Below are positions 11,273-53,921 of a stretch of 64,000 nt of DNA, piece by piece. The position numbers were made by a program, and so were the translations under genes. The notes under the pieces are model-generated. The model ran no database searches. It was given only the letters and a program-made list of their open reading frames with translations, and had not been told where the DNA came from. Source of the stretch: a virus; IMG/VR virus record IMGVR_UViG_3300008117_004657, positions 8,978 through 72,977 of that record, one strand, 5' to 3'. Each line of letters opens with the position of its first letter. The stretch's first letter is position 1.

Positions 11273-11274
11273 AA

Positions 11275-15646: not shown

Positions 15647-15648
15647 AA

Positions 15649-18117: not shown

Positions 18118-18975
18118 TTATGAATTATAAAAAATTAAACTTTGTGGAGCAAATAAAACTTTATTTCCAATTTTTGGTGATCCCCACATGCCATTAAATT
18201 CATTATTTTGATCGTCTACAGGTATAAAATTTAATTTACTTGTTAAAGAACTCAATACTTTAACCCTCTGTTTATAAACACTTTCAATATGAATTAAATC
18301 GATATTGGATAATTGACCCGTATGATACAATAATTTCATATCAAACCCTTTTACATCATCAAATTCAATATTATCATACAATTTATAAAGATCACCTTCT
18401 TTACTTAACCAAATTTTCTTTTCAACTAATTGATCAAATAATTCTCTATAATCATCCAGTGTAGCAAATAGATACTCATCATTATAGATAAAATTTTTGT
18501 AATAATCAAATAACGAATCACTCTTTTCAAATATAAAAAAAGCCGTTTCTTCTAATAAATCAAATTCTTTATTTTGTTGGTGTTTTTTACAATGATTATA
18601 TACAAAATTTAAAAAATTATCTTTAAGTTCTATATTTCTATCATTCCAAAGTTTTCTATGAAACATAGTTTTTGAACTAGCATTAAGTTGAAATGCAAAT
18701 TCGTTTAGTTCAAAAAAACCTTCCATACCTTTATGTACAATCATTTCAACAAACTCAACATCAAAATGAGGAATGTTAAAGTGTAAAGGATAATAAAATT
18801 TATTTTCATTATATTCTTTTGTTGTAGTATCTACTCTACGTTTAACTCTAAAATCTGGATAGCGTTCAAGTAATAACTTTTCTCTAGACAAACGAATGTT
18901 TCTCAAATAGTCACTTATTTGAGTATATTCTGAACCATTCAAATATTCTAAATTGTTTACATCATAAAGTTTCAT
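18118..18975 (-). CDS. Hypothetical protein
   Basis: 285-aa ORF overlapping the upstream radical SAM stop. No recognised motif. Confidence 0.6.
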   Translation of the reverse strand: MKLYDVNNLEYLNGSEYTQISDYLRNIRLSREKLLLERYPDFRVKRRVDTTTKEYNENKFYYPLHFNIPHFDVEFVEMIVHKGMEGFFELNEFAFQLNASSKTMFHRKLWNDRNIELKDNFLNFVYNHCKKHQQNKEFDLLEETAFFIFEKSDSLFDYYKNFIYNDEYLFATLDDYRELFDQLVEKKIWLSKEGDLYKLYDNIEFDDVKGFDMKLLYHTGQLSNIDLIHIESVYKQRVKVLSSLTSKLNFIPVDDQNNEFNGMWGSPKIGNKVLFAPQSLIFYNS

Positions 18976-19897
18976 TTAATTCAACTTCAAAGCTAATTAT
19001 GTTAAATTGACATTTTTTTTGTTGGCATTTTATAACTTTACCATTTAATAAATTTTTAGAAGGATCAAGAAAAATATTTCCTATTGGTTTTTGTTCATTT
19101 TCAAAACAACACATAGTAACATCTCCATTTCTATCTACCTCATAAGCTCGAACATTACAGTTTTTACCAGTAAATAATAATTTAGTTTCTTTATACATTT
19201 CATACTTACCTTTATTGTAAGGTAAAATAGAACCATCGATTTTATATATTACATCAAATTTATTTAAATATTTTTCAAATTTAGAATTCATATTAACTAA
19301 TTGATTAATAGTTTCTAGAAGATTACTGTTATCTAGAACCAGAGGTTGCAATTTCATATTTTTTAAAGAATCAAATACTTCCTCAATATAATCTATATCA
19401 TTTAAATAATCGTTATCGGTAAAAAAGAATAAAGAAGAATATTTAAAATTATCATCAACCCATTTTACATTATTTTTAAATTGAACTTTATTTAAATTTT
19501 CAGTATGTAAAGTGCATGTTATTTTTACTTTATCTCCAAACTTTTTTAATAAATTTAGTCTTTTTTTAAAAAAAGTTGGTTTATGATCGGCATGAGTTAT
19601 GATTGAAAATTTATGATCAGGATGTGCATTAGTGTACAAATAATTTATTATTTCTTCAAAATTTTTATGTAAAAGAGGTTCTCCTCCTATCAATTCGATA
19701 ATAATTTTTTTATTGTTCATAGACATTATTTTTTCAAGTCCTCTGAGAACACCACTAATATCATTATTATAACGAACACCATTGGTGTCCGCAACATTGT
19801 AACAGTATGAACAACTCTTATCGCACAAAGTAAATAATTCAAATTCTACTAGAACATGATCTCCTATAAATTCATTATGTGTTTTTATATGTTTCAT
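18962..19897 (-). CDS. Radical SAM protein with short C-terminal Cys cluster (twitch-like)
   Basis: CDKSCSYC, GGEPLLH and C-terminal C…CC…CQQKKC. Confidence 0.9.
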   Translation of the reverse strand: MKHIKTHNEFIGDHVLVEFELFTLCDKSCSYCYNVADTNGVRYNNDISGVLRGLEKIMSMNNKKIIIELIGGEPLLHKNFEEIINYLYTNAHPDHKFSIITHADHKPTFFKKRLNLLKKFGDKVKITCTLHTENLNKVQFKNNVKWVDDNFKYSSLFFFTDNDYLNDIDYIEEVFDSLKNMKLQPLVLDNSNLLETINQLVNMNSKFEKYLNKFDVIYKIDGSILPYNKGKYEMYKETKLLFTGKNCNVRAYEVDRNGDVTMCCFENEQKPIGNIFLDPSKNLLNGKVIKCQQKKCQFNIISFEVELNETL

Positions 19898-20732: not shown

Positions 20733-21491
20733 CTACATTAAAAAACATTTAGGTTTTGGGCAAACGCCATCGGTTTTTATTCTATAACAACAGTTATATA
20801 AATCTAAGTTTGGCGCATAGAGAAAATATTTATCTTTATACAAACAAGGTTTCCCAAAAGTATTAAAGTTTGAATCTAACCACAATTCACTGCGTTGACG
20901 ACCAAACCTATCGATATCCTCAAAATTAATTATCTTTTTATAAATCGAATTGTTTTTCAATGATTGATATTGTGAAAGTAAAGTATCACTATAACCATCT
21001 CCAAAGTCGGTAACTGGAGTCAAAAATAAATTGTCATGTGAAAAAGATTTTTTTATAGCAAAATAATAATCTATAGCTTCTTTTCCTGTGTACATAACAT
21101 CTATGATTTTAATATTGACTTCAGTTTCTTTTAATCCGTCAACTATATCTTTTATTGATGTTTCTGTTGGATGAATACTAATATTAACTTTAAAAGGTTC
21201 TTTTATTTGTTCGATTATTTTTCGACTGTAATTACTAAAGTTTGTTTGTATAACAAAAGGTATACTAAATTCATTAAAAGTTTTTATTATAAATTCTATT
21301 TTAGGATGAACAAATGGTTCCCCACCGAACACAAAAATCTCTACATTAGGATATTTTTCTCCTAAAGTTTTTATAAAACTTTTTATTTTTTCTTCATCCA
21401 ATTCTGGTCTTATACTGGGGTCCAAATTCGTACAATATACGCATTTATAATTACACTTAAGTGTAATTTCCCATTCAACAATTTTATTCAT
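20733..21491 (-). CDS. Radical SAM protein (short, twitch-like C-terminus)
   Basis: CNYKCVYC, GGEPFVHP, QTN, SIHPTE and C…CC…CPKPKC. Confidence 0.9.
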   Translation of the reverse strand: MNKIVEWEITLKCNYKCVYCTNLDPSIRPELDEEKIKSFIKTLGEKYPNVEIFVFGGEPFVHPKIEFIIKTFNEFSIPFVIQTNFSNYSRKIIEQIKEPFKVNISIHPTETSIKDIVDGLKETEVNIKIIDVMYTGKEAIDYYFAIKKSFSHDNLFLTPVTDFGDGYSDTLLSQYQSLKNNSIYKKIINFEDIDRFGRQRSELWLDSNFNTFGKPCLYKDKYFLYAPNLDLYNCCYRIKTDGVCPKPKCFLM

Positions 21492-22386
21492 TTTTTATTT
21501 TTAATTGTTTTAAAAGACCATCACAATTACAAGCTTTATGTGGACAAATCATAGGAATAGTTTTCGTAATATTTTTAAAAAAATCTCTATTACTTAAAAG
21601 ATTCACATTATCAGTTTTAGGCATACAAAATTTTACTACGTTGCCTTTAACATCAATTTCATAATTATTATTGTAACAACTCCATCCCTTGAAGTTTGTC
21701 ATCTTATCTCTAAAGATAATATAGTCATTAAAAAAATCGTCATCATATTTGAGTTCTTTTTCATAAGACTCTAAAAAAGAAAAATATTCCCAAAAATCTT
21801 TTCTATAATTAAACAATTTTGTAATACTGTTGCCGTATAAAAAATGTGGATGCACTTTTAAATTAGGTATTTTTTCTAAAGTTTCAAACATGTTTTTTAT
21901 TTTTGGCCAAAGTTTTTTATCATGATGTAACATTACATTAACTTTACACTTATAACCTCTATTCAACATGTGATTTATATTATTTAAAAATCTATTTTCG
22001 TCAGTACAATCAGCTGGGTGATAACTAAACAAAAATGCCAGTCTATCATAATCTGGGTGAGTTGTCAAATCTTTTTCAGCATTAGTAACAACATATACCC
22101 AATTAAATTTTTCCATTTTACTAATTGAATCTAAAATATAATAGTAATGTGGACCTAGAGTTGGTTCACCACCTAATAATCCAAGATTAAAATTTAGACT
22201 GCTTCGATTTAGAGCGTCCAAAACTGCATCTATTACTGTTTTGCTCGATAACTTACCCCATTCTTTACCATATTCATTTCTAGCGTAACAATAAGAACAT
22301 TTAAGTTGACAGATAGTTAAACTGTCCCAATGAATATTAATGTGATCTGGATCTTGATCTTTATGATGTTGTATTTTATACTTCAT
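21484..22386 (-). CDS. Radical SAM protein (short, twitch-like C-terminus)
   Basis: CQLKCSYC, GGEPTL, VTN, SYHP and FKGWSC…C…CPHKACNC. Confidence 0.9.
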   Translation of the reverse strand: MKYKIQHHKDQDPDHINIHWDSLTICQLKCSYCYARNEYGKEWGKLSSKTVIDAVLDALNRSSLNFNLGLLGGEPTLGPHYYYILDSISKMEKFNWVYVVTNAEKDLTTHPDYDRLAFLFSYHPADCTDENRFLNNINHMLNRGYKCKVNVMLHHDKKLWPKIKNMFETLEKIPNLKVHPHFLYGNSITKLFNYRKDFWEYFSFLESYEKELKYDDDFFNDYIIFRDKMTNFKGWSCYNNNYEIDVKGNVVKFCMPKTDNVNLLSNRDFFKNITKTIPMICPHKACNCDGLLKQLKIKNE

Positions 22387-23047
22387 ATTTTTTTAAAAAA
22401 TCTAAAGACGAGGTTATGTTTATATCTTTTTTTGTGTCTGGAAAAGATATATTATCATTCCCATCTTTTGTCTGATAAAAAAACACTTTACCAGTAGTTC
22501 TAAATGATTTAGAGTTACCTGAAGCGTGATAAACTAATCTGATATCATTATGTATATTGTTGTCTTTACCAAATAAAAAATCACCTATAACTTCTTTATT
22601 AAATATAAATTGTCCTAATTGTAGATGTTCAAGATTCAATTTATTTAAAAAATCAATTTTGTTGTTAATATTTTCGTCTTTAAACATATTTACTATTTCT
22701 AATAAATTGTCAGGTTTGTAAGTTGGATAGTAATTTCCTGCTATTATATCAGAATCAAATTCTTGATTAAAAAAATCATTTCTCAAATAATCATCATCTT
22801 CCAAAAAATAGATATATTTACCTTTTGATTGTAAAAATAAAAATTCGTATATACTTGATAAGTTATCAAATTTTTTATAAAAATATTTGACATTAGGATT
22901 TAAAATTTCTTCAATATCACAACTATCATTATTTACAATAATTTCTGTTTGGGGTGTTATTTGAGATAAAACCGATTTTATACATCTATCGAATAAAGTG
23001 GGTCTTTTGTGGGTTAATAATAAAATAGAAAGTTCAACATTTAACAT
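22376..23047 (-). CDS. Glycosyltransferase family 2 (GT-A) protein
   Basis: SILLLTHKRP…CIKSVLSQ…EIIVNND…SKGKYIYFLEDDD. Confidence 0.85.
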   Translation of the reverse strand: MLNVELSILLLTHKRPTLFDRCIKSVLSQITPQTEIIVNNDSCDIEEILNPNVKYFYKKFDNLSSIYEFLFLQSKGKYIYFLEDDDYLRNDFFNQEFDSDIIAGNYYPTYKPDNLLEIVNMFKDENINNKIDFLNKLNLEHLQLGQFIFNKEVIGDFLFGKDNNIHNDIRLVYHASGNSKSFRTTGKVFFYQTKDGNDNISFPDTKKDINITSSLDFLKKYEV

Positions 23048-24036
23048 ACAATTTTTATCTTCTCACCCAAGATAGGATTAAGATTGACCTTTCCTTTTAG
23101 TTCATTTTCTACACCATCACAAACATAAAAATATTTACATTTTAAACATTCTTCAGTTTTAAAACAACTATAAATTCTCAAACGATCTGCTTCAGAAAAA
23201 CACTGATCCACTTTTTGTTCATGTGTGTAAGAAATTTTAGTATTTAAAGTTTCATTATAAACTGCTTTATTCCAATCCTTCATATCATATATGTGATGAT
23301 AATGATTTTTTATATACTTTTCTTTTGATGGCATGAAGCAGTAAGGAAAATATCTAGCGTTTACTTCAACAAAATCTTTTAATTGATCAATATAATCAGA
23401 TACATGTGAACAAATAATTTCATAATTTATAGGTTGAAAATCTTTATTGTCTCTCCAATAATTTAAAGCTATAAAATTTACCTGTGAAGGGCTTAAAGAC
23501 TTTATAAATGAGGTATCTATTTTATCAAAGTTTTCATGATATATTGTTGTGTTTAACCTAACTTCGATATTTAATTTGTGTGAGTTTTCGACAGCTTTAA
23601 TTAAATTATTAAAAGCTCCTTTTTTACCTACAATTTTGTCATGAATATTTTCATCCGTACAATGCAAACTAAAAAGTATTTCTCTTAATCCTAAATCATA
23701 ACTTTTTCTTATAAAATCTTCATCACTAAATTTTCCTCCATGACTAAGGCAACTGATTCTATCGAATTTATTTCGACAGTAATTTAATATATTAAACCAG
23801 TTTGGTTCAACGCTACTTTCACCACCACTTAGATCGATTTCTCTTATGCCATAATCAAGTAAATAATCTATTCTTTTGTATATTTTTTCAAGTTCATCTC
23901 TTTCAGTCAAACTATTTTTATAGTAACAAAATTCACATTTATAATTACAAAGTTTACCTGTGTCCAATTTAGCCCTACTATTAATAGGTCTATTATAATC
24001 AACAGTAACTTTATTAACACTTAATTTGTTCATCAA
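23041..24036 (-). CDS. Radical SAM protein with C-terminal CxxC…C motif
   Basis: CNYKCEFC, SGGE, HDKIVGKKGAF, FPYC and CLKCKYFYVCDG. The layout resembles HxsC-like enzymes. Confidence 0.88.
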   Translation of the reverse strand: MMNKLSVNKVTVDYNRPINSRAKLDTGKLCNYKCEFCYYKNSLTERDELEKIYKRIDYLLDYGIREIDLSGGESSVEPNWFNILNYCRNKFDRISCLSHGGKFSDEDFIRKSYDLGLREILFSLHCTDENIHDKIVGKKGAFNNLIKAVENSHKLNIEVRLNTTIYHENFDKIDTSFIKSLSPSQVNFIALNYWRDNKDFQPINYEIICSHVSDYIDQLKDFVEVNARYFPYCFMPSKEKYIKNHYHHIYDMKDWNKAVYNETLNTKISYTHEQKVDQCFSEADRLRIYSCFKTEECLKCKYFYVCDGVENELKGKVNLNPILGEKIKIVC

Positions 24037-24892
24037 TGTACTTTATTAAAAGGTCATCTTTTGTTAGGGACGTGTTTTGAATACCATCTTTTTTCCTAAC
24101 TTCCAGTGCCTTATCATAATAATCTACATCATAAATAATTTCTTTATCATAATACATACACTCCAAAATAAATCTACTAGAACAATCTTTTTTACCTGGC
24201 AGTTTGGTATAAACATATGTAGAAAACTTGTTCCACATATCAGGCACAGGAACTTTATATGTATTAAAATTTTGGTATAATTCTGGTTTATTCGTAAAAA
24301 TTATACTATCTTTAATTGAATATTTATTGATGACTTCAGTTAAATCTTCTTGTGGTAAGAATCGACTAACATCAGTTAAATAAAACATGGAAGAGTTTTC
24401 AATTTTTCCATCTATAGTTTTGAATTTAGAATATAAAATTTTCTTTTTATAATCTATAACATTTAGTCCTTCTGGTATATCATCATATATCTCAAAATCT
24501 TGAAATAGATGGCTTGAAAATTTTTTATTTGAATAATAACTGAAATCTTTCTCATGACATCTTAAAAGAAAAAAGTTGTCACAATAAATTTCAGAATTAT
24601 TAAACTTGGAATATCCGTCAACTATTAATAAATTTTTCGTTAATAATAGTTTTGGATAAGGATGATAGACTAAATTTTCAATGGTTAAATCATGGTATTT
24701 CGATTTTAAAGCTATATTGAATTCTTCAATAGTCGTACCATCAGACAATAATATACAAGGATTTAAATTTGTCCAATTTTTTATAGCCCAATAGTATTCA
24801 ATCATTTCAAATAAATGGCCACAAATACCAAATTTAAAGTTATATGAAGTGGTTATTACCAAATCATAACTTCTCAAATTAATTAAAGACAC
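24014..24892 (-). CDS. Hypothetical protein, possibly GT-B glycosyltransferase-like
   Basis: 292 aa, GTG start. C-terminal DCSSRFILECMYYDKEII loosely resembles the GT-B donor-binding E…EA helix. Confidence 0.4.
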   Translation of the reverse strand: MSLINLRSYDLVITTSYNFKFGICGHLFEMIEYYWAIKNWTNLNPCILLSDGTTIEEFNIALKSKYHDLTIENLVYHPYPKLLLTKNLLIVDGYSKFNNSEIYCDNFFLLRCHEKDFSYYSNKKFSSHLFQDFEIYDDIPEGLNVIDYKKKILYSKFKTIDGKIENSSMFYLTDVSRFLPQEDLTEVINKYSIKDSIIFTNKPELYQNFNTYKVPVPDMWNKFSTYVYTKLPGKKDCSSRFILECMYYDKEIIYDVDYYDKALEVRKKDGIQNTSLTKDDLLIKYIDEQIKC

Positions 24893-24898
24893 TTAAAA

Positions 24899-26002
24899 TT
24901 ATTTCAAAATAATTTGATCTATACTAAGTGGATTGTATCCTAGATACTCAAAAAAGTTTTTTGGAACTTGATTTACAACATCTTGTTTTAAATTGTTGTC
25001 TAAAATATTTTTAACATATTCAGATTTTAGTACATCAAAAAATAAATTTAAATTTTGATTCAAGTCAAAATTTGAAAAAATTTCTTGAAAATTGTCGATA
25101 GAGAAATTTTCTATAGATGAAGATTCGCATTTAAATAATTCAAATTCGTTTATAATACTATTATAATTTGATAATTGATTTCTCAAAAAAATTTCTTTGT
25201 CGTCAAGTAAAAATTTTTCGTTTTTTAAATAATCTTCATATTTAATATTGATTACATTTGGTAAAGATTTTACTAATACCATATTAAAGATAGAAAAAAT
25301 AAAATTTTTAAACTTATTATTTTTTTTAATATAATCTTCTTCATACCTTATTGCATCAAAATTATAATCTAAATTATTTATGAAAGAGCAAACACTAGGA
25401 TTTCTTATAATATTTAAAACTCTAACATTTTCTTCTCCTAGTTCTTCTTTAACTTTTTGTATAAAAGATGGTGAAAATATTCCTGTCCATATATTATATG
25501 AATTTTTTTCTTTAAAAGAATTTAAGATATTCTGATACTCTAACGCATTGGATATTAAAATTTTTTTAATATCTTCATTAGAATAAATATCTTTATACCT
25601 AGAGTTTGATTGTAGATTTGTTATTTCATCTTCCATTAAAACAAAAGATTCAAGATTGTAAAAAAAACTATCAAGATTGGTAGTTATCCAAGAAACTTCA
25701 ATATGGTTTTCATTAAAAATTTTATCTGTTAGTTCAATATTAAATTCTTCTATCCTTTGTATTAAAGAATAATTTTTTTGTTTTAATTCATCATCTTCAA
25801 CATTCAGTAAACCATAATTTATTTTTCCTAAAGATTCATTATTACAATATACATTTTTTTGTTCAGAATCAAAAATTATAAAATCATCGTTTCTATATTT
25901 TACGGTATATTCATCAAATTCCCAAACTTTTTCGGCGTCAAGAATACTTCTAGATATGTATTTTAGATTTACAGTTTTAGGACCATTTATTAAGGTTATC
26001 AA
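24899..26002 (-). CDS. Hypothetical protein with sulfotransferase-like motifs
   Basis: VLNIIRNP and INIKYED match sulfotransferase 3'-PB and downstream motifs; ends YLGY. No clear 5'-PSB loop. Confidence 0.5.
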   Translation of the reverse strand: MITLINGPKTVNLKYISRSILDAEKVWEFDEYTVKYRNDDFIIFDSEQKNVYCNNESLGKINYGLLNVEDDELKQKNYSLIQRIEEFNIELTDKIFNENHIEVSWITTNLDSFFYNLESFVLMEDEITNLQSNSRYKDIYSNEDIKKILISNALEYQNILNSFKEKNSYNIWTGIFSPSFIQKVKEELGEENVRVLNIIRNPSVCSFINNLDYNFDAIRYEEDYIKKNNKFKNFIFSIFNMVLVKSLPNVINIKYEDYLKNEKFLLDDKEIFLRNQLSNYNSIINEFELFKCESSSIENFSIDNFQEIFSNFDLNQNLNLFFDVLKSEYVKNILDNNLKQDVVNQVPKNFFEYLGYNPLSIDQIILK

Positions 26003-26004
26003 AA

Positions 26005-26424
26005 TTATCTCCTTAAGTAAGACTCAATAATTTCATTAACACTTTTCTCATCATTTAAATCTGGTAAAACTTTTAATTTATCAATTATATTATAAAATTC
26101 GTCTTTTTTTTCTTGTAATTGTTTAATTGAATCCATAAGGTTGATATATTTTTCCAACTTATTAATAAGTTCAACATCGCCTGTTTCTATAATTTTGATA
26201 TAAACTTCTTCTCTAAGTTCTTCGGTTATGATGTATCCCTTTGAAGCCAGTTCATTGTTAATAGTCATAAAACTGACGAAATCCAATAATTTAAACGTCA
26301 AAAGTTCATCACCAAAAATTCCTCTAGCTTTTGTTTTACATGCTAGAGCAGCTTTACCCGCATAAGTATTCGCGTCTATACCTTCAATTTCAACTCGTTT
26401 TTCTTCCATAAAATTTATCTCCAC
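26005..26424 (-). CDS. Hypothetical protein in the radical SAM cluster
   Basis: 139-aa helical ORF directly downstream of the Cys-repeat gene. Confidence 0.65.
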   Translation of the reverse strand: MEINFMEEKRVEIEGIDANTYAGKAALACKTKARGIFGDELLTFKLLDFVSFMTINNELASKGYIITEELREEVYIKIIETGDVELINKLEKYINLMDSIKQLQEKKDEFYNIIDKLKVLPDLNDEKSVNEIIESYLRR

Positions 26425-26433
26425 TATTAATAA

Positions 26434-27360
26434 TTATTTAATCTCAAAAGGAAGTTCAGAATAATTAACCATATAAAAACCATTTTTGGTCATATAAACA
26501 GCATTAGAATATTTTGTTTTTAGAAGTTCTTGGGCCATAACACCGACAAAAGTCTCATTACTCCAAATATAAGAAAAACTGTAAACATTAATTCCAAAAA
26601 TATTCTTCAAATATTTAATATTCCTTTTCAATCGTCTGTCACTATAATTACAATTGCATGTGCAAGAATAATTGCAGTTACATGTACAATAATTACAGTT
26701 ACATGTACAATAATTACAGTTACATAAACATACTGCGCCAGCATCTTTTACTTTTTTAATTAAAGCATTAATGTCTGTCGCACTTATTCTAGTTGATAGT
26801 TGTGCGTTATTAGTGGTAGATATACCGGCAAATCCAGTAACAAAACCTGCTACCGAAATTGCAGGACCTCGGTCTACTTGTGGATTAGTAGTATTTGGTC
26901 CACCCCAGAGTTCAACACCACCAAAAGCTACAAATTGAGTGCCGTTAGGAAAAATTCGTTGCGTTAATTGAGAACCCGAACTTACAACACTTTCTCCTCC
27001 GGATGACGATGTAGTTATGAGACCAAATGTCCTAGCTCCCGTTCTCTCTATCGAGGCTTTTAAATTATTTATTTGGGACGATGTTATGGAAGTGCCGGAA
27101 CTGACAGTTGATCCTGACGGTGCAGAAAGTCCTCGCCTAGTACATTCAGACGCATAAGCGGTTCTAATAGCATTTATTGATGCAGCCCCAATTAACGATC
27201 CTGCTGTAACATCAGTCAAAGAATAAGTTGTAGCAACTGCAGCGCCATTATAAACGTTTGCTTTTACTATGTAGGTTCCACTAGCATCGTTGTCAGGGTT
27301 GTAACCCTTTGCATGACCAGAGGAAGCAGGAGGTCTTTTTTTGGAAGATGAATACGGCAT
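26434..27360 (-). CDS. Tail-fibre-like protein with (CxCNCNY)4 tract and C-terminal Peptidase S74 intramolecular chaperone; candidate radical SAM substrate
   Basis: Gly/Ser/Thr-rich body with three I-x-[AS]-x-x-I-N motifs. Then CLCNCNYCTCNCNYCTCNCNYSCTCNCNY, then SDRRLKRNI…GINVYSFSY…GVMAQEL…GFYMVNYSEL. Confidence 0.85.
   Translation of the reverse strand: MPYSSSKKRPPASSGHAKGYNPDNDASGTYIVKANVYNGAAVATTYSLTDVTAGSLIGAASINAIRTAYASECTRRGLSAPSGSTVSSGTSITSSQINNLKASIERTGARTFGLITTSSSGGESVVSSGSQLTQRIFPNGTQFVAFGGVELWGGPNTTNPQVDRGPAISVAGFVTGFAGISTTNNAQLSTRISATDINALIKKVKDAGAVCLCNCNYCTCNCNYCTCNCNYSCTCNCNYSDRRLKRNIKYLKNIFGINVYSFSYIWSNETFVGVMAQELLKTKYSNAVYMTKNGFYMVNYSELPFEIK
26675..26725. repeat. Exact 21-bp tandem repeat (2.4 copies) within the Cys tract
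   Basis: cagttacatgtacaataatta at 26675-26695 and 26696-26716, partial copy at 26717-26725. Confidence 0.92.
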
Positions 27361-27361
27361 A

Positions 27362-27742
27362 TTAAATCTCTTTTGATAAGAAGTTTAAATTATCTTTAAC
27401 TTTATTTTCTTCTAAAAATTTTTCATAATCATCAACATCAACAGTAGATGATAAAAAGTCCATAGTTTCTTTATCGGGTTCTTTATCTGACAAAGAATCT
27501 TCTGAAGATTCTTTAATTATATACATCACCATTTCTTCTAAAGAAAAACCTAAAATGTTAGAAACAAGATTTATTTGATCGGAAATATCTAAAGTTCCTT
27601 TAAAGTCCTCTTTAGAAATAGTTTCCAGAACATTTATTGATAGACCTAATCCATCCAATAATACTCTACCCGCAACATTATCTTCTTCAGATATCTCACC
27701 CATAAGTCTAATTATTTCTTCTATTTTTTCAGTGGTTTTCAT
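27362..27742 (-). CDS. Hypothetical acidic protein in the radical SAM cluster
   Basis: 126 aa. ATGA overlap with the upstream radical SAM gene, and it stops 1 nt before the Cys-repeat gene. Confidence 0.65.
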   Translation of the reverse strand: MKTTEKIEEIIRLMGEISEEDNVAGRVLLDGLGLSINVLETISKEDFKGTLDISDQINLVSNILGFSLEEMVMYIIKESSEDSLSDKEPDKETMDFLSSTVDVDDYEKFLEENKVKDNLNFLSKEI

Positions 27743-28602
27743 ACCAATTCCTTTTCTTTAAAATCTCGAAATTTTGGGGAACTCTCAATATTGAAATGTG
27801 TAGTAACATTTCCTTCGTCTGTAAAATACGTTTTAATTTCTTTTCTAATACTACATCCGTCACAAATATCACAAAATAGAGAACATACAGGCGACTGAAT
27901 CTCATTATTTATCCAACTTAACCTGAGATTTTCTTTCATAGAATCTAAAAGTTTTAAGTCTTTCTCACTCAAAGTATCCCAGGCGACAGAGGTTATAAGT
28001 CTCTCCGGCCTAAAAGTTTTGATTAGTTTAGTTATATCTTCGGAAGCTCGCCTTATATTCAATTTATGAATGGTATATCTTATTCGAAACCTGAAATTAT
28101 TTTCCAATAACTTCTTAAATATCTTTACCATAAATGGTGTTGATTCCATACCATTGTGAAAAACTCTGTCTTTATTACCAACTCCATCAAAACTCACATC
28201 TATAGATAATAACTTCTTCTTATAAAAAAAATTATTTTTAGTTACGTCTATGAAATCTTGGCTTAAATATTTAATACCATTTGTTGTCATATTAAAATGA
28301 ACATTCTTCTTTTTACTATAGGCATAGTCCATAGCAAAACAAACATTTTCCCATTCTAATGTTGGCTCTCCACCAAACAATACTATAAGAGTTTGCTGAC
28401 TCGGATCCTCACGTTCTAAAATTTTATCAATACTTTTTACAATATCTTCTTTACTTAAAATTTGCGGCGGTCTTCCTGGTAAATCTTCATAGCAATACGT
28501 GCAAGCTAAGTTGCATTTATTGGTAAAATATAATACATTTACACCAGATCCAGAAACTATTGGTTTATTAGGATCTTGTATGTAAAATTGTTCTACATTC
28601 AT
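27739..28602 (-). CDS. Radical SAM protein (anSME/peptide-maturase-like core, short Cys-rich C-terminus)
   Basis: CNLACTYC, LFGGEPTL, MTTNG, VSFDG and CSLFCDICDGC. Confidence 0.9.
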   Translation of the reverse strand: MNVEQFYIQDPNKPIVSGSGVNVLYFTNKCNLACTYCYEDLPGRPPQILSKEDIVKSIDKILEREDPSQQTLIVLFGGEPTLEWENVCFAMDYAYSKKKNVHFNMTTNGIKYLSQDFIDVTKNNFFYKKKLLSIDVSFDGVGNKDRVFHNGMESTPFMVKIFKKLLENNFRFRIRYTIHKLNIRRASEDITKLIKTFRPERLITSVAWDTLSEKDLKLLDSMKENLRLSWINNEIQSPVCSLFCDICDGCSIRKEIKTYFTDEGNVTTHFNIESSPKFRDFKEKELV

Positions 28603-28898
28603 TGTATTATCATTTTATGAGAATTTTTATATCTATTTTCTTTTGGACGTTTTTTAGCTTCTTCAATTATGTGTCGCATGTTGTCCAAAAATTTGATATA
28701 ATCTAATTTGTAATCAAATAAATGTCCGGCTTCATTATATCCAACATATTTACTATCAACTTTAGCTTTACCTTTTCTAGCTTCTTCAATCTGCACTGAT
28801 AACTCATCAACAGGAATTACTTTGTTTGATGCATGTTCAACAGGTTGCATCTCAACCTTTATTGGTATAGATAATAAACTTTTAAAATTTTTTTTCAT
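28599..28898 (-). CDS. Hypothetical protein in the radical SAM cluster
   Basis: 99 aa, translationally coupled on both sides. Confidence 0.6.
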   Translation of the reverse strand: MKKNFKSLLSIPIKVEMQPVEHASNKVIPVDELSVQIEEARKGKAKVDSKYVGYNEAGHLFDYKLDYIKFLDNMRHIIEEAKKRPKENRYKNSHKMIIQ

Positions 28899-29746
28899 TA
28901 AATTTCCTTAGGATACATCATAAGTCCACCTTCACAAATTTCTTTCGGACAAATAACTTTTTTTGTAATATCTTTTAAAGATAACGGCATAATTTCATTA
29001 GTGCAAACATTTTTAACCAAATTATCCAATTCTATTTGAAAAGATTCTGGCACACATTTATAATCTCTAAAAGAATTTTTTTTCTCATATAATAATTTTA
29101 AATCTGTTGTTCTTTCTTCCGAACCATCATCATATAAAACATTTATATCTATCATATCTTCAGCATTAGAAGCTTCTGTAAAAAAATCTTGATCTAAGTT
29201 ATTTGTGTAATATGGAGTATCAACTAAAAAATTTAATTTAAATTTAATATTATTAGATTTACAGTTATCAATAATATTTAAAATATAGTTTTTATACTCT
29301 GGCATCATACTTATATGAACTTCACAATTTAGATTTTTACACTTTTTTAAAAAATCCTCTTTGTGATATTCTGGATGAAAAGATGCATAATACTTAACTT
29401 TTGAAAAACTTTTTATACTTTTATAAAAAGTTTCCGATCTAGTCAAGTTGGTAAAAAAATAAATTTTTACCAAATTTTTAATTTCATTTAATCCTTCCAG
29501 TATTTCTTCAATATTTGGATGTAATGTTGGTTCACCACCAGTTAAACAAATCTCAAAAGGTTTAGAAATAGTTTTTAATCTACTTATTATTAACTTGTAA
29601 CTTTGTGCAATCTGAGTCGTATCATTGTAATCATAACTTAAATTTTCCTTTACATTACAGTATGAACACTTCAAATTACACCAATTCAATATATGCCAGT
29701 TAATTCTAAGAATTTTATCTTGACTGGTGCAAGAAATAATTTTCAT
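28898..29746 (-). CDS. Radical SAM protein (short, twitch-like C-terminus)
   Basis: CNLKCSYC, TGGEPTLHP, FTN, SFHPE and FRDYKC…C…CPKEIC. Confidence 0.9.
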   Translation of the reverse strand: MKIISCTSQDKILRINWHILNWCNLKCSYCNVKENLSYDYNDTTQIAQSYKLIISRLKTISKPFEICLTGGEPTLHPNIEEILEGLNEIKNLVKIYFFTNLTRSETFYKSIKSFSKVKYYASFHPEYHKEDFLKKCKNLNCEVHISMMPEYKNYILNIIDNCKSNNIKFKLNFLVDTPYYTNNLDQDFFTEASNAEDMIDINVLYDDGSEERTTDLKLLYEKKNSFRDYKCVPESFQIELDNLVKNVCTNEIMPLSLKDITKKVICPKEICEGGLMMYPKEI

Positions 29747-29747: not shown

Positions 29748-30872
29748 TTAATTCCTACACTCTACGCCTTCATTTTCAACACCAACATTTTCAATATAAT
29801 GTAATACTAAATCTTGAAAAACTGGAACATCCTTACACTCATCAACAACTCTTAAACCCTGTTCATAATATATGTGAAATAATTCACAAATACTATCCAA
29901 TGGTTTATTGTCATTCATAATTTGAGAATAAGTGCATCCAGTATTACATACTTGTTTTAAATCGCAAGGTTCACATTTATCAAAACTTTTAGGATTAAAT
30001 ATATCTTGATAATATTTAAAATTATATTGTTCGTCCATCTTCATAATTTTTTTAGATGCAAATCTGGCGCAAGGATAAAATTCACCAGAACTCATCAAAA
30101 CTCCACCATTGGTTCCTGCAAAACATCCAAATGATCTTTTTCCTTTTACTAATCCATATAGTGTGTCCAAAATAGCTAGTCTGAGAAAGCCAACTGAACA
30201 AGCTTTACCTGATTTTAGTTTTTCTATCCAAAAATCCGCCAATCTTTCACATTCATATCTAAACTGTTTGATATCTTCTACAGTCCAAACATCATCTCGA
30301 ACTATACTAAAATCGGGATGATCTATACCCCAATCTAGTAAGAATTGGAAATTCTCCGTCATATCTTTGGTATTACCTGGCCATATCATAACTTTACAAC
30401 CGTTTGTTAAATCTTTTATGATTTCTTTCTTGTACTCATACATTGAAAGAATACCATCAAATAAATCTCCAGTTTCTGGATTAGTATTTTCTAAAAGTGG
30501 TAATAAAGGTCTAGTTTCATTTGAACTCATACCATCAAAAGACCAAGAAACACCGACACCATTTTCTTTTAAATAATGAGCTTTATTTTCATCAATCATC
30601 GTAAGATTTGTGATGATATTAATACCTTTACATTTCTTATCCGATTTCAAATAAGGAACGGCGTGAGTTATAAGATCCCAATTTAATAGTGGTTCACCAC
30701 CAAAAAAACTTACATGATAATCCCTATCTCCCGATCTTTGCATCAAGTTGGGCAAATCTTTCATACCTTGATCGAAAACCTCTTTCGTCATCCAAGTTGG
30801 CCTATTTGCTACATAACAATAAGGACAACCTAGATTACATTTTTCAGTAACACTTACCTCTAATGTAAACAT
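29748..30872 (-). CDS. Radical SAM/SPASM domain protein
   Basis: CNLGCPYC, FFGGEPLLN and SFDG. SPASM region GCFAG…GEFYPC…CEPCDLKQVCNTGC…C. Confidence 0.92.
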   Translation of the reverse strand: MFTLEVSVTEKCNLGCPYCYVANRPTWMTKEVFDQGMKDLPNLMQRSGDRDYHVSFFGGEPLLNWDLITHAVPYLKSDKKCKGINIITNLTMIDENKAHYLKENGVGVSWSFDGMSSNETRPLLPLLENTNPETGDLFDGILSMYEYKKEIIKDLTNGCKVMIWPGNTKDMTENFQFLLDWGIDHPDFSIVRDDVWTVEDIKQFRYECERLADFWIEKLKSGKACSVGFLRLAILDTLYGLVKGKRSFGCFAGTNGGVLMSSGEFYPCARFASKKIMKMDEQYNFKYYQDIFNPKSFDKCEPCDLKQVCNTGCTYSQIMNDNKPLDSICELFHIYYEQGLRVVDECKDVPVFQDLVLHYIENVGVENEGVECRN

Positions 30873-30882: not shown

Positions 30883-31989
30883 TTAAACTGTGCATTGTTC
30901 AGCCTCGATTTTAATCGTAGGCTTTTTATAACTCTTTAGTGCTGTTCTTAGAGCATGATGTACTATCTCATTCGTTTTGAATACCTTACATACCTGCCAA
31001 TTAGCTGTATGATCACTCCATTTTTCTAAATAAGTTTCTTTTTCAGATTTCTCATAAGTCGCAGCATTACACTTCATACAAAACTGACTATCGCAACTCA
31101 TACAGTCTAGTGGTTGATTTTTCAATGCGTCTTTATACATCTGAGATTTTTCTTCAATCAACTGATCTAAATCTGGAACTTTAAAAATATTACCGAGTTT
31201 ATGTGAATGAGATTCTTTATACATGCATCCGTGACAAGGACTTAAATCCCCATTCAAGTCCACACTCACATAATTTATACCTGCAGCACATAGAGCTCTA
31301 GACTGTTGAAACCATCCAAATTTTTCAGGAGGTAATTTGTTATCATAAATGTGTTTAGCAATTTTTTTCAATCCATCCTTCAAAACTTCTAATCTAGGCA
31401 TGAATTCTTCTTCATTCAACTGACTGTATAAGTCTGGTGTTGGAAAATAATTATTATCCATTTCTATTACATCTAGAAATGCTTCATAAATTAAATGGAA
31501 ATTATCGGATGTCAAAACAGATTTCAATGAAACATTTAGCCCAGCTTGTTTAGCTGCAATATAGTTTGCTTTAACTAAGGCTGATGATGGAGTACCAGAC
31601 TTAGTTACTCTTGCGATATCATTTACTGGTTTTCCATCATATGAAACTTGTAACTTTAGTCTACCTGGAATTTCATTATGAATTCTAACCAAATCTTTTA
31701 AATATCTTTTTAAATATGTTCCATTTGTATAGAAGAAAAAAGAAAACCCAGGATCGTGTTTAAACTTCTCAATAACACCTTTACAAAAATCCCAATTAAC
31801 AAACGGTTCGCCACCCCAAAAATAAACATCCTTTTTAGGATCAGAAATTTTAGCCATAAATTCTTCAACATTATCTAATGTCAAAGAAGTATTTTCTTCA
31901 AACTCAGTAGATAGACCACACTCAAAACCTTCGGAACAATATGTGCAAGCTAAATTGCAAATACTTGTTACGTTTATATCTACTACCAT
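30883..31989 (-). CDS. Radical SAM/SPASM domain protein
   Basis: CNLACTYC, FWGGEP, YTNG and VSYDG. SPASM region CAAG…GDLSPCHGC…CMSCDSQFCMKC…C. AAGGAG Shine-Dalgarno. Confidence 0.92.
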   Translation of the reverse strand: MVVDINVTSICNLACTYCSEGFECGLSTEFEENTSLTLDNVEEFMAKISDPKKDVYFWGGEPFVNWDFCKGVIEKFKHDPGFSFFFYTNGTYLKRYLKDLVRIHNEIPGRLKLQVSYDGKPVNDIARVTKSGTPSSALVKANYIAAKQAGLNVSLKSVLTSDNFHLIYEAFLDVIEMDNNYFPTPDLYSQLNEEEFMPRLEVLKDGLKKIAKHIYDNKLPPEKFGWFQQSRALCAAGINYVSVDLNGDLSPCHGCMYKESHSHKLGNIFKVPDLDQLIEEKSQMYKDALKNQPLDCMSCDSQFCMKCNAATYEKSEKETYLEKWSDHTANWQVCKVFKTNEIVHHALRTALKSYKKPTIKIEAEQCTV

Positions 31990-32044: not shown

Positions 32045-32782
32045 TCAATCAACATTTCTGTAGTATTCGTTCAGTTCTAAAACTTTTTTAAGTAATTCTA
32101 CATCATAATTTTTCACCAAACACTCGGTATCTTTTGGTAAGCAAGGACCTCCAAATCCTCTTTTTCCGTCAGGTCCAGGAACTTTAAAATGATTGGATCC
32201 CATCCAAGGATGTTTAGAAAGTATTTCGATAGCTTCCTCATAGTTTACCTCCATCTTTTTAGCTACATCATACATTGAATTCATAAAAATAACTTTTGTT
32301 GCATAAAAAGAATTCATTGAGTATTTTATAAAAGAAGCAGTATTGATATCCGTTATGAATGTATTACTCATATCTACAGTAGAATACTTTCTATAAATTT
32401 CTAATGCTTGTTCAGATTTATTACCCGATAAAATCGTTAGAGGAGGATTTACAAAATCTTCCTTTGAAGTGGACCTTGATAAAAATTCTGGATTATATAC
32501 TACGTCATATTGTTTTAAATATTGTGGTAACACAGTTGATTTGACTATGACAACTCCTTTATAATTCATTCGTCGTATTTCATCAAGTACAGAAATCAAC
32601 AAAGAATAATTAGTGTTATCTGTGGGAGTAGGAACACAAACGAAGATAGCCTCAGGATTTAATAAACAAAGGCCTTTCACCGTTACGTGATTATATTTCG
32701 GATCACAAACAAAAACTTTAGTTTTGGAAAAGCCGTATTCAACGGCTTGTCCAACCATTCCATAACCAATAATTCCAATCAT
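32045..32782 (-). CDS. UDP-glucose/GDP-mannose dehydrogenase family protein (short, phage type)
   Basis: GYGMVG, VCVPTP, KSTV, YNPEFL and GFGGPCLPKD. Lacks the C-terminal UDP-binding domain. Confidence 0.88.
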   Translation of the reverse strand: MIGIIGYGMVGQAVEYGFSKTKVFVCDPKYNHVTVKGLCLLNPEAIFVCVPTPTDNTNYSLLISVLDEIRRMNYKGVVIVKSTVLPQYLKQYDVVYNPEFLSRSTSKEDFVNPPLTILSGNKSEQALEIYRKYSTVDMSNTFITDINTASFIKYSMNSFYATKVIFMNSMYDVAKKMEVNYEEAIEILSKHPWMGSNHFKVPGPDGKRGFGGPCLPKDTECLVKNYDVELLKKVLELNEYYRNVD

Positions 32783-32785: not shown

Positions 32786-35700
32786 TTACATGATAGCTAC
32801 TTCTATCTTTCCTTCTTCTTCAGTGTTTTTATCTTCTAAACAAATTAATCTTAATGGTAATTTGTTACCATCAGATACTTTAGCTACTCCTGGTACATCA
32901 GACATTTCAAGTAAATCACCTTTTTTACATGTGCCTAAAATTCTAACAGGCAATCTACCTTTGAGTCCAACAACTATACCACCTTCTAATCCATCATTCA
33001 TTAAGAAAGCAGGTTTTTCCGAAACAACTCCTATTATAACATGTAATTTATCTTTTGTCGCGGCTGTAACTTCTTTATTGCCGCCAATCATCATAATCGT
33101 TCCATAATCATAAGATTGGTCTGGTAAATAACATTCGGCTAAGTCCGCAGAATAGTATGCTGATGTTGCGATGCCTCGGAAGAAATCAGCTACAATATCC
33201 TTTTCACAGAATATACCACCTTCAACATATAGAGAAGCACCAGCGGCAGGACTAGTAGAATTATCTTGACCAGTTGTAGCTTGAGTGCTATTTCTAATTC
33301 TAACCCTACCATAAAGATCGGAAGCACCATAATTAGTTAAATTAGCAGAAGTTGCTTGGCCAGCGACGCCAGTAACAATCGTTCCTCCAGAAGTAACATT
33401 AGTTGTACTACCAGCAGTTGTAGCGCTACTAGCAGATGTAGCACTACCAGCACTAGTTGCATATCCAGCATCACCGGTAATATTCATGGGATAAGTTCTA
33501 GCGCCACCTGTGTCAGTTCTTGAAACTCTATTTGTAGGTAATAAACCGGCAGCATCAACTTGAATATATCCAGTTAAATTGGGAGCAGAAATTTCAGACC
33601 AACTAAATCCAGTACCCGTCCAATTTAAAAAACGATTTAAATTTGCTGGAGGAGCAACAATGAAAGCTGTAGTATCTTGTTCTGATTGATATACAATTCT
33701 ACTTGCAGCACCGCCAGTAATATTATTCGCTCTATCAGAAACAAAACCTAAAGTTGTAAAATCTGCTGGATCTGAAGTTGCATGTGTATATTGCCATCTG
33801 TCAATAGTTTCATTATAACGGAATATAGCATTTGGAGAAACACCCCTATCAACTTCAATTGTAGCACTTAAAGACGGACTCTGATTTTGGTTTTGATTAC
33901 CATTAAATACAAAAGTTCCACCTTGTAGGAGTGCTGTGCCTCCATTAAACTTAATGTTGCCACTTTCCAATTTACCAGTAACATTTATATTACCATTTAT
34001 GGTTTGAATATCACTACCACCCGTTCTATAAACAGCATTATTTGCATTACTGAACGCAGCATTGGCATGCCTAAATGCCACATCTAAATGTACGTTTGCT
34101 GTATTTGCAAATAAAAATGCCGCATTAGCGTGAATAAATGCTGGAACAACATTAGCTAAAGCTTGAGATGCAGATTCTTGTGCAACAGCAGCAGCAGCTG
34201 CAGCAGTATTGGCAGCTCCAAAAGCTCCATTCGCATAAGAACTAGCACTATTTGCACTTCCAAATGCTGAGTTAGCATATCCACCAGAAATTACACCACC
34301 ACTCAATGCAGCAGCATTAGCCGCAGCAAAAGCAGAATTAGCATACACGCCTGCACTATTTGCACTTCCAAATGCTGAGTTAGCATATCCACCAGAAATT
34401 ACACCACCCTGCAAGGCAGCAAGATTCGCTGCAGCATAAGCGCCATTAGCATAATTTGATGCACTCGTTATATTAATTGTAAACAGAGCCGAGTTAGCAT
34501 TAGCAGTATTAGACACTACGTTTGCCCAATTAAATGCAGCATTAGCATGAGTGTAACCCGAGTTGGCATATCTACCAGATGTTTGTGCGACTGAGTGCGC
34601 GGTGTTTACCGCTAAAGGCGTAGCTATATTAGATGTACTTAAATTTGAAACTTCAGAATCTAAGAAACTTGCATCCAAAATTCCATAAAGTTCACTATAG
34701 GTATTACCTTTTGAGATTTTCCATTGGTCATCAGTTTCAACCCATCTAATAATCGCATCATCACCAACAGGCCTTTCATTTCTAAAAACTGCATCAGCGT
34801 TTGTTGGTGTTCTCTTATTTAAAATTATCTCACTTGTCTCATATTCAATGTCACCTAAAGCTGTCCAAGTTCCCTCAACAGTTAAATTACTTGAAATGTA
34901 AGCTGTATTGAGTGTAGTTTTTCCATCAACGATTAAAGATTCATATTGGCTGCCCGGAGCATAAATCCTTAATTGCGATCCACTTTGCATCCATAGATTA
35001 GAAGAAACATTTACCCAAGCAGCATTAATTGTGGAAACTTCAACATTATTTGTAATAATATTATTAGCGGTAATTCTATGAGTTGAAGTTAAATTATATG
35101 ATGTTAATATGTTAATTGAAGATGTATTGATTGAAGCTACATTTATACTTGAACTATTTGAAACTAGATTTACTACATTACCATTTAATATGGTAGCGGT
35201 ATTGATCGAAGATACATTGATTGAAGCTAAATTTGATACTAGAGTTACTACATTACCAACTAATGTGGTTGACGCATTTACTGTAGCAACATTAATTGAT
35301 GATGAATTCGACACTAGAGTTACTACATTACCATTTAATATGGTAGCGGTATTGATCGAAGATACATTCGAACTAAAATTAACAATATTACCAGAAATAT
35401 TGGCGACCAAATACCTTGTGGAAACGGAATTAGAGGTATGCGAATTCGAAGAAAGATAGTAAGAATTGCCTGTTACATTTTCTAAAATACCTATTCTAGC
35501 AAAAGCGAGATCATCTAAAACATCTATTCTAGCAAACGAAGCATATAAATTTGCAGTGCTTACGTTAGTAGAAAAAGTATCTGTGGAGTATATTGTATTA
35601 GATTTTATGGATCCATTATTAGCATAAGCTACATTTCCTGTACCACTTAATCTTAGAGTGCCGGTAGATATTGTTAAATTGTTCGCTACAGTTACACTAC

Positions 35701-43902: not shown

Positions 43903-43910
43903 AGACTTAT

Positions 43911-46703: not shown

Positions 46704-46706
46704 TTA

Positions 46707-49106: not shown

Positions 49107-49113
49107 CTATTAT

Positions 49114-52546: not shown

Positions 52547-52567
52547 ATATTTTACCTTTTAATTTTT

Positions 52568-53920: not shown

Positions 53921-53921
53921 A

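Follow-up and report, generated by a model that had tools for sequence, protein, structure and literature searches.

The gene considered here lies at positions 26434-27360 of a 64,000-nucleotide stretch of viral DNA (hereafter the window, part of a single 72,977-base viral record), and it codes for a protein in which a tract of cysteine heptads directly precedes a Peptidase_S74 domain. Domains of this type are known from the C-terminal ends of phage proteins such as the K1F endosialidase, T5 pb1 and the GA-1 neck appendage. For instance, in T5 pb1 the bond preceding the equivalent Ser is cut, the Lys at +5 activates this Ser, the Ser departs with the chaperone, and cleavage requires an Arg and an Asp from the mature part (PMC4690869). 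Chaperones may also be encoded on their own, as is the case for the tail-fibre chaperones of the Alteromonas phages V22 and A5, which resemble intramolecular chaperones (IMC) and have been called "transient caps" (PMC10579305).

Other described systems are close to this locus because of its gene neighbourhood. Cys-rich repetitive targets coded beside radical S-adenosylmethionine (radical-SAM) enzymes of the SPASM type are known from the ranthipeptide and SCIFF systems (PapA/PapB, SCIFF/ScfB) and from QhpC/QhpD, where QhpC is a protein subunit of quinohemoprotein amine dehydrogenase and not a free peptide. Similarly, in the CXXX-repeat systems (TIGR04115 maturase, PF27846 of Pfam 38.1) Cys-repeat targets are paired with SPASM maturases. 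In phages, 11-12 radical-SAM proteins and a 21-bp repeat in one coding sequence were reported in 2010, as unconnected features, for CP220 and CPt10 (Timms et al., PMC2853527). Additionally, for pelagimyophages, radical-SAM cassettes have been placed in the host-recognition cluster (Zaragoza-Solas et al. 2020, PMC7029224), and a 2025 cyanophage paper lists a radical-SAM maturase as an "antibiotic synthesis" gene (PMC12801897). The radical-SAM wealth of Campylobacter group II and aquatic T4-like phages has so far been explained only by metabolic boosters, "antibiotic synthesis" genes or variable cassettes.

The window protein shares features with both kinds of system. We propose, with about an even chance of being right, that a RiPP-like pathway (RiPP, ribosomally synthesised and post-translationally modified peptide) would cross-link the Cys tract of a probably virion-associated protein, with the S74 domain as a traceless follower. 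This reading builds on what is observed of the domain, of conservation, of alternative C-termini and of gene linkage, and it is the most economical one because it accommodates a constrained Cys/Asn/Tyr repeat, three co-inherited enzymes and a removable domain that abuts the last Tyr. The gene and its parts are as follows.

26434-27360, minus strand: heptad protein gene (body, Cys-heptad tract and S74 domain), an open reading frame (ORF) of 308 aa with an ATG start, defined from the ORF, its homologues and alignments
26731-27360, minus strand: body, residues 1-210, with three related helices and a variable, poorly predicted middle (115-190), from motifs and AlphaFold2 (AF2)
26644-26730, minus strand: Cys-heptad tract, residues 211-239, four C-x-C-N-C-N-Y units and one inserted Ser, from sequence and conservation
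26437-26643, minus strand: Peptidase_S74 intramolecular chaperone / auto-processing domain, residues 240-308, from PF13884, AF2 and BFVD

In the ORF translation, the tract reads CLCNCNY, CTCNCNY, CTCNCNY, S and CTCNCNY, and it is immediately followed by SDRRLK (S240), just as a first-pass annotation of this DNA had described it; 12 of the 13 Cys of the protein lie within it. A protein search gave 560 homologues at E<=1e-3 among 5367 candidates. The annotation had named a lack of conservation of the tract as a point that would count against its proposal; the tract was kept, ahead of S-D-x-R/Q/E-L/V-K, in 120 of the 120 homologues among the matches listed. In these, the junction between tract and S74 domain has no spacer in 114 cases, an extra Ser in five and an extra Thr in one, and there are four heptads in 102, the rest having 3, 5, 6, 7 or 12. 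Within the heptads, positions 1, 3 and 5 are Cys in 506/506, position 7 is Tyr in 499/506 and position 6 is Asn in 488/506, and position 4 varies between N, D, Q and H only. When 102 sequences are aligned, the Cys, the Tyr and most Asn of the tract are invariant or at least 90% conserved, with a body identity of 35-40%. At the DNA level, 15 distinct versions of the tract show pairwise 12.9 synonymous vs 1.04 non-synonymous codon differences out of 29; because the pattern used to select these versions already fixes 27 residues, the informative part of the comparison is the saturation of the silent sites. Judged from these sequences, a tract that is present in all listed homologues, with its residues fixed and its silent sites saturated, is more than a product of chance.

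The number of units changes quickly, since a protein that is 98% identical to that of the window (P0001) has three heptads instead of four (301 vs 308 aa). A change in repeat number between near-identical phages is as expected for 21-bp slippage. Across loci there are 2 to 28 heptads per protein, and in the extreme members (L021:5265-6305, L028:9632-10726, L010:8762-9907) 346-381 aa hold 17-28 heptads and 54-90 Cys, with C-x-C-D-C-N-H units or Gly-rich tails in some of them. A search for longer relatives, in which the tract might be fused with radical-SAM or fibre domains, gave only nine proteins (610-851 aa), with no precomputed Pfam domain.

The S74 domain, which the first-pass annotation had recognised by its motif, is matched by PF13884 at residues 240-288 (model 1-57 of 58, E=8.8e-7, 29.6 bits with a cut-off of 22). 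PHROG families of the S74 type match as well (phrog_6121, E=4.2e-13), and Foldseek against BFVD finds proteins named "intramolecular chaperone auto-processing domain" (best E=5.4e-5, root-mean-square deviation 2.0, 65 columns). Residues S240, D241, R243, L244 and K245 are invariant in the 102 sequences, and Ser240 and Lys245, whose spacing equals that of Ser1264 and Lys1269 in T5 pb1, are presumed to be the catalytic pair. Thus, the domain is like those of K1F endosialidase, T5 pb1 and the GA-1 neck appendage in its hidden Markov model (HMM) score above the cut-off, in its S-D-x-x-L-K motif, in its Ser and Lys(+5) and in its C-terminal position. By contrast, the part upstream is a Cys-heptad tract on a protein of about 240 aa instead of a long beta-helical fibre or spike, and the domain is short (69 aa), without the C-terminal coiled-coil helix of the split versions described below. 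If the rule of T5 pb1 is applied to the window protein, its mature end would therefore be ...CNCNY239, which is the same as the end of relatives that have no S74 domain.

These relatives carry the comparative evidence. Heptad proteins end in four ways, namely with a full S74 domain, with a 12-residue stub, with ...CNCNY or ...CNCNYS, or with other tails. The 97 shorter homologues divide into 46 that stop at the tract (with at most three further residues), 25 with the stub, two with a full S74 domain and 24 with short tails of other kinds. The natural ends at the tract include those of L027 and L034-41, the closest relatives of the window phage, whose radical-SAM genes are 67-97% identical to those of the window. 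The stub comprises exactly 12 residues, S-D-x-x-L/V-K-x-x-I/V-x-Y/A/F-M/L/I/F, and then a stop codon. Genes with a stub are directly followed by a separate ORF of about 90-105 aa, and all eight of the downstream ORFs scanned match Pfam S74 at approximately positions 14-58 of the 58 in the model, six of them above the cut-off (23-40 bits) and two below it (16-17 bits).

L017:10220-10540: split-S74 ORF, Pfam S74 scan
L018:10156-10461: split-S74 ORF, Pfam S74 scan
L042:10237-10545: split-S74 ORF, Pfam S74 scan
L044:10158-10442: split-S74 ORF, Pfam S74 scan
L047:2745-3047: split-S74 ORF, Pfam S74 scan
L048:10576-10887: split-S74 ORF, Pfam S74 scan
L026:10813-11091: split-S74 ORF, Pfam S74 scan
L007:11011-11283: split-S74 ORF, Pfam S74 scan

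As these ORFs, which end in a coiled-coil-like helix, cover that part of the model after a stub, the S74 domain is split in those phages: the first 12 residues, including Ser and Lys, remain on the substrate, and the remainder is a protein of its own. With the stub on the substrate, cleavage would still be possible. These relatives of the window protein are like Alteromonas phages V22 and A5 in coding most of the chaperone as a small gene directly downstream and unlike them in that the split falls inside the domain, so that the catalytic Ser and Lys stay on the substrate. We have not found a division of S74 into stub and body described in the literature, where no search was aimed at that split. 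That the mature protein would end in its Cys tract, as the first-pass annotation had suggested, receives strong comparative support from these alternative C-termini.

Some loci have several heptad genes. There are four tandem heptad paralogues in L026:8264-10828 and three in L007:8963-11020, head to tail and in one frame, with TAA-ATG between them. Read-through or recoding of these in-frame genes was ruled out, because the junctions are an ordinary TAA and then ATG. A single downstream ORF for the remainder of S74 follows the four stub-bearing paralogues of L026, and only the middle of the three paralogues of L007 has a full S74 domain.

Heptad genes were found at 44 viral loci in a scan of IMG/VR and at only four loci among one genome each for 185,579 prokaryote species, all four on contigs of metagenome-assembled genomes (MAG) that carry the same gene module. 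The family is thus nearly confined to phages. The window itself is a fragment of a T4-like myovirus, with baseplate wedge and tail genes at 42565-55951, and its heptad gene is located in the structural half of the genome, near the baseplate genes. Two of the loci are the Campylobacter phages CPt10 and CP21, and the CP220 homologue is gp140, a 534-aa "hypothetical protein" coded between the tail sheath/tube genes and a gp63-like tail-fibre attachment gene, in which six 21-bp units are annotated as "Repetitive region x.1-6".

The linkage of the heptad gene to radical-SAM genes is the chief new result. The window holds nine such genes, four of them directly upstream of the heptad gene, and three of these four form a triad that recurs across loci.

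27739-28602, minus strand: radical-SAM enzyme "w27739", 287 aa, with CxxxCxxC and a 4-Cys C-terminal cluster, triad member (PF04055, E=7.7e-13)
29748-30872, minus strand: radical-SAM/SPASM enzyme "w29748", 374 aa, triad member (PF04055, PapB model)
30883-31989, minus strand: radical-SAM/SPASM enzyme "w30883", 368 aa, triad member and, in most divergent loci, the immediate upstream neighbour of the heptad gene (PF04055, SPASM PF13186, TIGR04085)

An HMM built from eight of the window's radical-SAM genes matches 41 of the 44 viral loci and three of the four genome loci within the distance limit of 10 kb, always on the same strand. By BLAST against the window's enzymes, counterparts of w29748, w27739 and w30883 recur across loci at 25-41% identity. 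In divergent lineages, the order is w29748-like, w27739-like, w30883-like and heptad gene; the distance from the heptad gene to the gene ahead of it is -31 to +15 nt in L012, L016-18, L023, L028-32 and L043-45, and the w27739-like gene is absent from L017, L018, L023 and L045. When clustered at 45% identity, the w30883-like genes that neighbour heptad genes fall into 14 clusters. The module may also be dispersed, as in CPt10/CP220 and in the contig of L043/L079: a w30883-like gene stays near the heptad gene, with an overlap of the two in L043 and a distance of 2.2-2.3 kb between them in CPt10/CP220, and in these genomes a w29748-like and a w139-like gene (w139 being the gene directly downstream of the heptad gene in the window) are found together elsewhere on the same genome.

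A reverse test gave a consistent picture. A search with a w29748-like profile gave 78 loci, in which heptad ORFs were sought within 8 kb. At 31% identity or more, 27 of 37 loci have an ORF of three or more heptads; of the others, L086 has two heptads, L057 has a 71-aa remnant, L078 and L079 have a heptad gene at another place on the contig, four are truncated by the end of the contig, and L080 and L120 have no heptad ORF. The 41 loci with an identity of 29% or less are all without a heptad ORF within that distance. The remnant in L057 (10665-10880) is the N-terminal part of a heptad gene at the usual place, beside a w29748-like enzyme 75% identical to that of the window, and it may reflect decay of the gene or else an assembly that collapsed at the repeat. 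The linkage is one that outlives rearrangement and 25-40% divergence, including in the Campylobacter phages, and it supports the idea of the first-pass annotation that the tract might be a radical-SAM substrate.

The Campylobacter group II phages CP220, CPt10, CP21 and IBB_35 (Firehammervirus) are like the window in having a heptad protein, many radical-SAM genes (11-12 in these phages) and w30883-, w29748- and w139-like genes, and unlike it in that the module is dispersed, the tract is internal, the tail contains Cys over 208 aa and there is no S74 domain. In detail, their homologue (160932-162536 of the CP220 record, L049; also L019/L020) has six heptads in the middle of the protein, followed by a 208-aa tail with scattered C-x-C. 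The CP21 record names this homologue "putative N-acetylneuraminate pyruvate lyase", and nothing that we have seen supports that name. The gel reported for CP220 lists 11 proteins, and gp140 is not among them (PMC2853527).

All three enzymes of the triad carry CxxxCxxC, and each has its own conserved set of Cys. In w27739-like proteins, Cys 30, 34, 37, 240, 244, 247 and 250 are invariant in 14 of 14; three plus seven Cys are invariant in 17 orthologues of w29748 and in 18 of 18 of w30883, where the extra Cys have a SPASM-type arrangement. The best NCBIfam model for all three is that of the PapB ranthipeptide maturase (w27739, E=2.9e-25; w29748, E=6.6e-38, aligned to model positions 5-320 of 330; w30883, E=1.1e-21). 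For w29748, the nif11-peptide, SCIFF and QhpD maturases come next, in an order that differs for w27739 and w30883, and all three enzymes also show a weak match to TIGR04115 (E 1e-12 to 1e-15).

From these elements, a possible course of events can be drawn. The family plan is a variable body, an amphipathic helix (a conserved helix precedes every tract) and heptads of the form C-(T)-C-(N/D)-C-N-Y, to which the window phage adds a fused S74 domain. By homology, this domain would trimerise the C-terminal end and then cut between Tyr239 and Ser240, and its removal would leave ...CNCNY as the mature C-terminus. The tract would be the most likely substrate of the triad, with its two SPASM-type enzymes and one enzyme with a 4-Cys C-terminal cluster, and the likeliest chemistry would be the conversion of thiols into thioether or other radical-made cross-links to neighbouring Asn, Asp, Thr or Tyr. 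Thioethers are judged most likely because the best enzyme models are thioether formers, because position 4 is only N, D, Q or H and because free thiols on a released particle would be a liability. Known thioether-forming enzymes use as acceptors the residue classes seen at heptad positions 4 and 6. Such cross-linking would turn an oxidation-prone string of Cys into a rigid, redox-inert ladder. The modified protein would probably be a small virion appendage, a location favoured by its S74 membership, by the structural position of its gene and by the names of its BFVD hits (tail fibre, neck appendage); however, no fibre fold is recognisable in the body, and the mature part is small, only about 240 aa. 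In its fullest form, the proposal is that the three enzymes turn the C-terminal Cys heptads of a virion protein into a ladder of poly-thioether (or similar) type, with S74, either fused or as a stub plus a trans-acting body, as a self-cleaving follower, in a system shared by lake, ocean and animal-gut phages; this version we regard as possible but rather doubtful.

As for the follower, the first-pass annotation had suggested that a self-removing S74 domain would replace the usual protease. The replacement fits, as no protease gene was recognised among the module genes scanned with Pfam and PHROG; the cleavage itself would follow by analogy with T5 pb1.

Several results weigh against this RiPP-like reading. 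Unlike the mature part of T5 pb1, residues 211-239 of the tract contain neither Arg nor Asp, and thus the "sensor" residues of that protein have no counterpart there; the requirement is a feature of one solved member and is outside the Pfam definition. Many relatives have no S74 domain, and therefore trimerisation is not essential to the family; the trimer with 36 clustered Cys that the annotation had envisaged is accordingly not general. Its description of the protein as fibre-like found no support either, as the body gave no fibre fold or fibre family match (nothing at E<=0.001 with Foldseek against PDB, and only the S74 part matched in BFVD), and the tract is unfolded in the AF2 monomer, with predicted local distance difference test (pLDDT) values below 50. 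The enzymes score 89 (w27739), 131 (w29748) and 77 (w30883) bits with the PapB model, whose cut-off is 340, and the SCIFF, QhpD and CcpM models are likewise far below their cut-offs; therefore, the enzymes belong to no characterised maturase family and their chemistry is a guess. They also begin at the CxxxCxxC motif and have no N-terminal RiPP recognition element (RRE) domain; the NCBIfam alignments start at residues 3-25 and at about position 80-100 of the models (SCIFF, nif11, QhpD). The helical protein w139 was considered as a recognition protein of the RRE type and dropped (AF2 pLDDT 89, all helical, no specific Foldseek match). With regard to linkage, a heptad gene without a radical-SAM gene on the fragment is found at three of the 44 viral loci (L013-L015, records only 9-23% complete) and at one of the four genome loci (L046), and in the window clade, where the heptad gene is part of an island of nine radical-SAM genes and sugar enzymes, synteny alone is weak evidence.

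The locus also differs from the ranthipeptide, SCIFF and Qhp systems in more than these scores and the missing RRE domain. There are three enzymes instead of one, the follower would be self-cleaving, and the target is a phage protein of 140-540 aa with C-x-C-x-C-x-Y units, a spacing that is not described in those systems. The window protein matched no NCBIfam target model.

Among the alternatives, the one that survives best, although we consider it unlikely, is a metal-binding tip, in which the inward-facing Cys of three chains trimerised by S74 would line up as successive sites for metal (Fe, Zn, Cu or others) and thereby stabilise the end of a short fibre, and the radical-SAM genes would serve otherwise or would supply or need Fe-S. 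The invariance of Cys, Asn and Tyr agrees with it, and an alternating C-x-C-x-C suits a beta-strand with one Cys face, as far as the sequence suggests. Metal ions lie on the axis of T4 gp37, of gp12 and of P2-type spikes. The His-x-His ladders of T4 gp37/gp12 and P2-type tips are like the tract in being short terminal repeats with potential ligands on alternate residues and a presumed trimer, and unlike it in ligand (Cys here, with no HxH motif) and in the radical-SAM linkage. S74 domains also fold trimeric beta-helical ends (PMC4690869; PMC10579305). Nevertheless, metal binding leaves unexplained both the linkage of three specific enzymes across 14 deep lineages and the 0/41 loci with distant radical-SAM genes that carry a heptad gene. 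Additionally, many members without S74 have no obvious trimeriser, a three-fold axis would give three or six thiolates per site, which by general chemistry is unusual for Fe or Zn, and no structure model supports a Cys-lined axis. A prediction of the trimer (residues 186-308 in three copies, with the 102-row alignment) returned "no answer" (score 0.01, mark 0.42), which counts neither way on binding. In any case, metal binding is compatible with the RiPP-like reading, as it does not exclude cross-linking.

A released peptide is improbable. According to this explanation, the protein would be a true RiPP precursor, and its modified tract would be cut on both sides, with S74 making the C-terminal cut, to give a diffusible metallophore or an antimicrobial or host-manipulating peptide instead of a component of the virion. 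The plan of the protein is indeed precursor-like, with a conserved helix, a repetitive core and a removable follower, short forms of 70-170 aa are common (the 97 matches), and the surrounding island, with a Trp-halogenase, a B12 radical-SAM enzyme, a glycosyltransferase and sugar enzymes, looks like a cluster. As a lead, query-like atlas clusters carry the PF27846 label "rSAM target Cxxx repeat" on 19-25% of their members, so that database curators may already regard related repeats as radical-SAM targets. However, neither a protease nor an exporter was recognised among the scanned module genes, S74 is otherwise found on fibres, spikes and appendages (names of the BFVD hits), the heptad gene has structural genes around it, and selection acts on the body, whose helices are conserved.

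Still less probable is a plain stalk, in which the heptads would be a compact beta-helical or disulfide-stapled structure that needs S74 to fold, and the linkage would reflect a shared hypervariable island. Such islands have been viewed in print as host-recognition clusters with radical-SAM cassettes (PMC7029224), and S74 is a known folding aid for trimeric ends (PMC4690869), but the linkage outlasts rearrangement and 25-40% divergence, including in the Campylobacter phages and in the MAG contigs labelled Bacillota and Thermoplasmata. Finally, that the Cys-rich protein would be an Fe-S, iron or sulfur scaffold or donor keeping the phage's radical-SAM enzymes loaded is barely credible: the nine radical-SAM genes of the window, several with two or three clusters each, and their co-inheritance with the heptad gene speak for such a helper, but a scaffold has no need of a self-cleaving S74 domain, a variable body and 3 to 28 repeats, the invariant Asn and Tyr are left unexplained, and the linkage is specific to three enzymes and not to radical-SAM genes generally (0/41).

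Further features of the heptad gene agree with the first-pass annotation. The three related motifs that it had pointed out in the body begin at residues 57, 92 and 192, at or just ahead of the starts of helices 59-75, 94-105 and 194-208 in the AF2 monomer; block pLDDT is 83-94 for the three helices and 81-92 for the S74 part, and residues 115-152 are below 50. The gene is also, as noted there, GC-richer than its neighbours (0.370, with 0.422 for the body, vs 0.21-0.32 in adjacent genes and 0.314 in the window). Outside the tract and the S74 domain, Pfam, PHROG and NCBIfam gave no match for the body; residues 190-240 are matched by phrog_26958 (E=3.5e-12), and sequence searches of the PDB with the family profile and with the S74 part alone gave no real match.

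The DNA of the window occurs in metagenome runs labelled freshwater or lake water. For 26000-28700, identical contigs are found in three metatranscriptome libraries and in one further DNA run, all labelled freshwater, and the contig of the DNA run spans the tract, with four heptads and zero differences. The contigs of the three metatranscriptome libraries are identical to the parts of the gene within 26308-26646, 26906-27137 and 27249-27463 (the parts left uncovered carry no information), which is compatible with expression of the heptad gene, DNA carry-over being also possible.

The remaining genes around the triad are the following.

28898-29746, minus strand: extra radical-SAM gene "w28898", 282 aa, outside the core triad (PF04055, E=1.1e-11)
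28599-28898, minus strand: 99-aa ORF between radical-SAM genes, no Pfam, PHROG or NCBIfam match
27362-27742, minus strand: 126-aa acidic ORF directly upstream of the heptad gene, clade-specific, no family match
26005-26424, minus strand: "w139", helical protein directly downstream of the heptad gene (jackhmmer; phrog_25260, of unknown function; AF2)
24014-24892, minus strand: "w292", conserved module-associated protein (jackhmmer; phrog_24441, of unknown function)

An 84% identical orthologue of w28898 is present in L034-L041, and elsewhere there are only matches of 21-34%. According to jackhmmer, the 99-aa ORF is found in the window and 21 loci (only the window clade plus L010, L011 and L033), the 126-aa ORF in the window and 19 loci, w139 in the window and 34 loci, being kept with the module in divergent ones, and w292 in the window and 33 loci. 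In a broader structure search, the best Z of w139 was 7.2, within the range common for helical bundles. As a lead, w292 is possibly glycosyltransferase-like, since its nearest named atlas clusters are glycosyltransferases (score 0.90).

Five further radical-SAM genes lie in the window, at 18962-19897 (SPASM), 20733-21491, 21484-22386, 23041-24036 (best match HxsC-like) and 11275-12804 (B12-binding, plus strand), and orthologues of four of them recur in the window clade and in a few divergent loci (L032, L044). The island (10628-17429, 22376-23047 and 32045-32782) also codes for a protein of the Trp-halogenase family (16137-17429, Pfam 213 bits), a GT2 glycosyltransferase, nucleotide-sugar epimerase-like proteins, a sulfotransferase-like protein and a UDP-glucose dehydrogenase fragment, and it resembles a biosynthetic cluster set within the structural region. 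A 2067-aa protein (36348-42551; DUF4815, phrog_358) and a 1103-aa protein without family (32786-36097) are coded between the baseplate genes and the module, and the C-terminal 100 residues of the latter protein recur beside heptad genes in L064, L067, L083 and L021.

In the literature, we found neither the motif CTCNCNY nor a CXXX repeat combined with radical SAM, and, judging by titles and abstracts, the matches listed for ranthipeptides together with bacteriophages include no phage proteins. The split S74 domain adds to what is known of the evolution of fibre chaperones. The heptad, as a compact and strongly constrained motif, could be of interest in protein engineering, where it might serve as a rigid, redox-inert or metal-binding module. 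Cross-linking of the tract, if it occurs, would be a new RiPP-type chemistry on a C-x-C-x-C-x-Y scaffold, carried out on a protein rather than on a peptide, and the S74 domain would provide a natural, protease-free removal of a follower. At least three phage radical-SAM genes now have a concrete candidate substrate encoded next door. Should the proposal be true, the heptad protein would be the first case of a viral structural protein modified by radical-SAM enzymes, and it would explain the wealth of radical-SAM genes in Campylobacter group II and aquatic T4-like phages.

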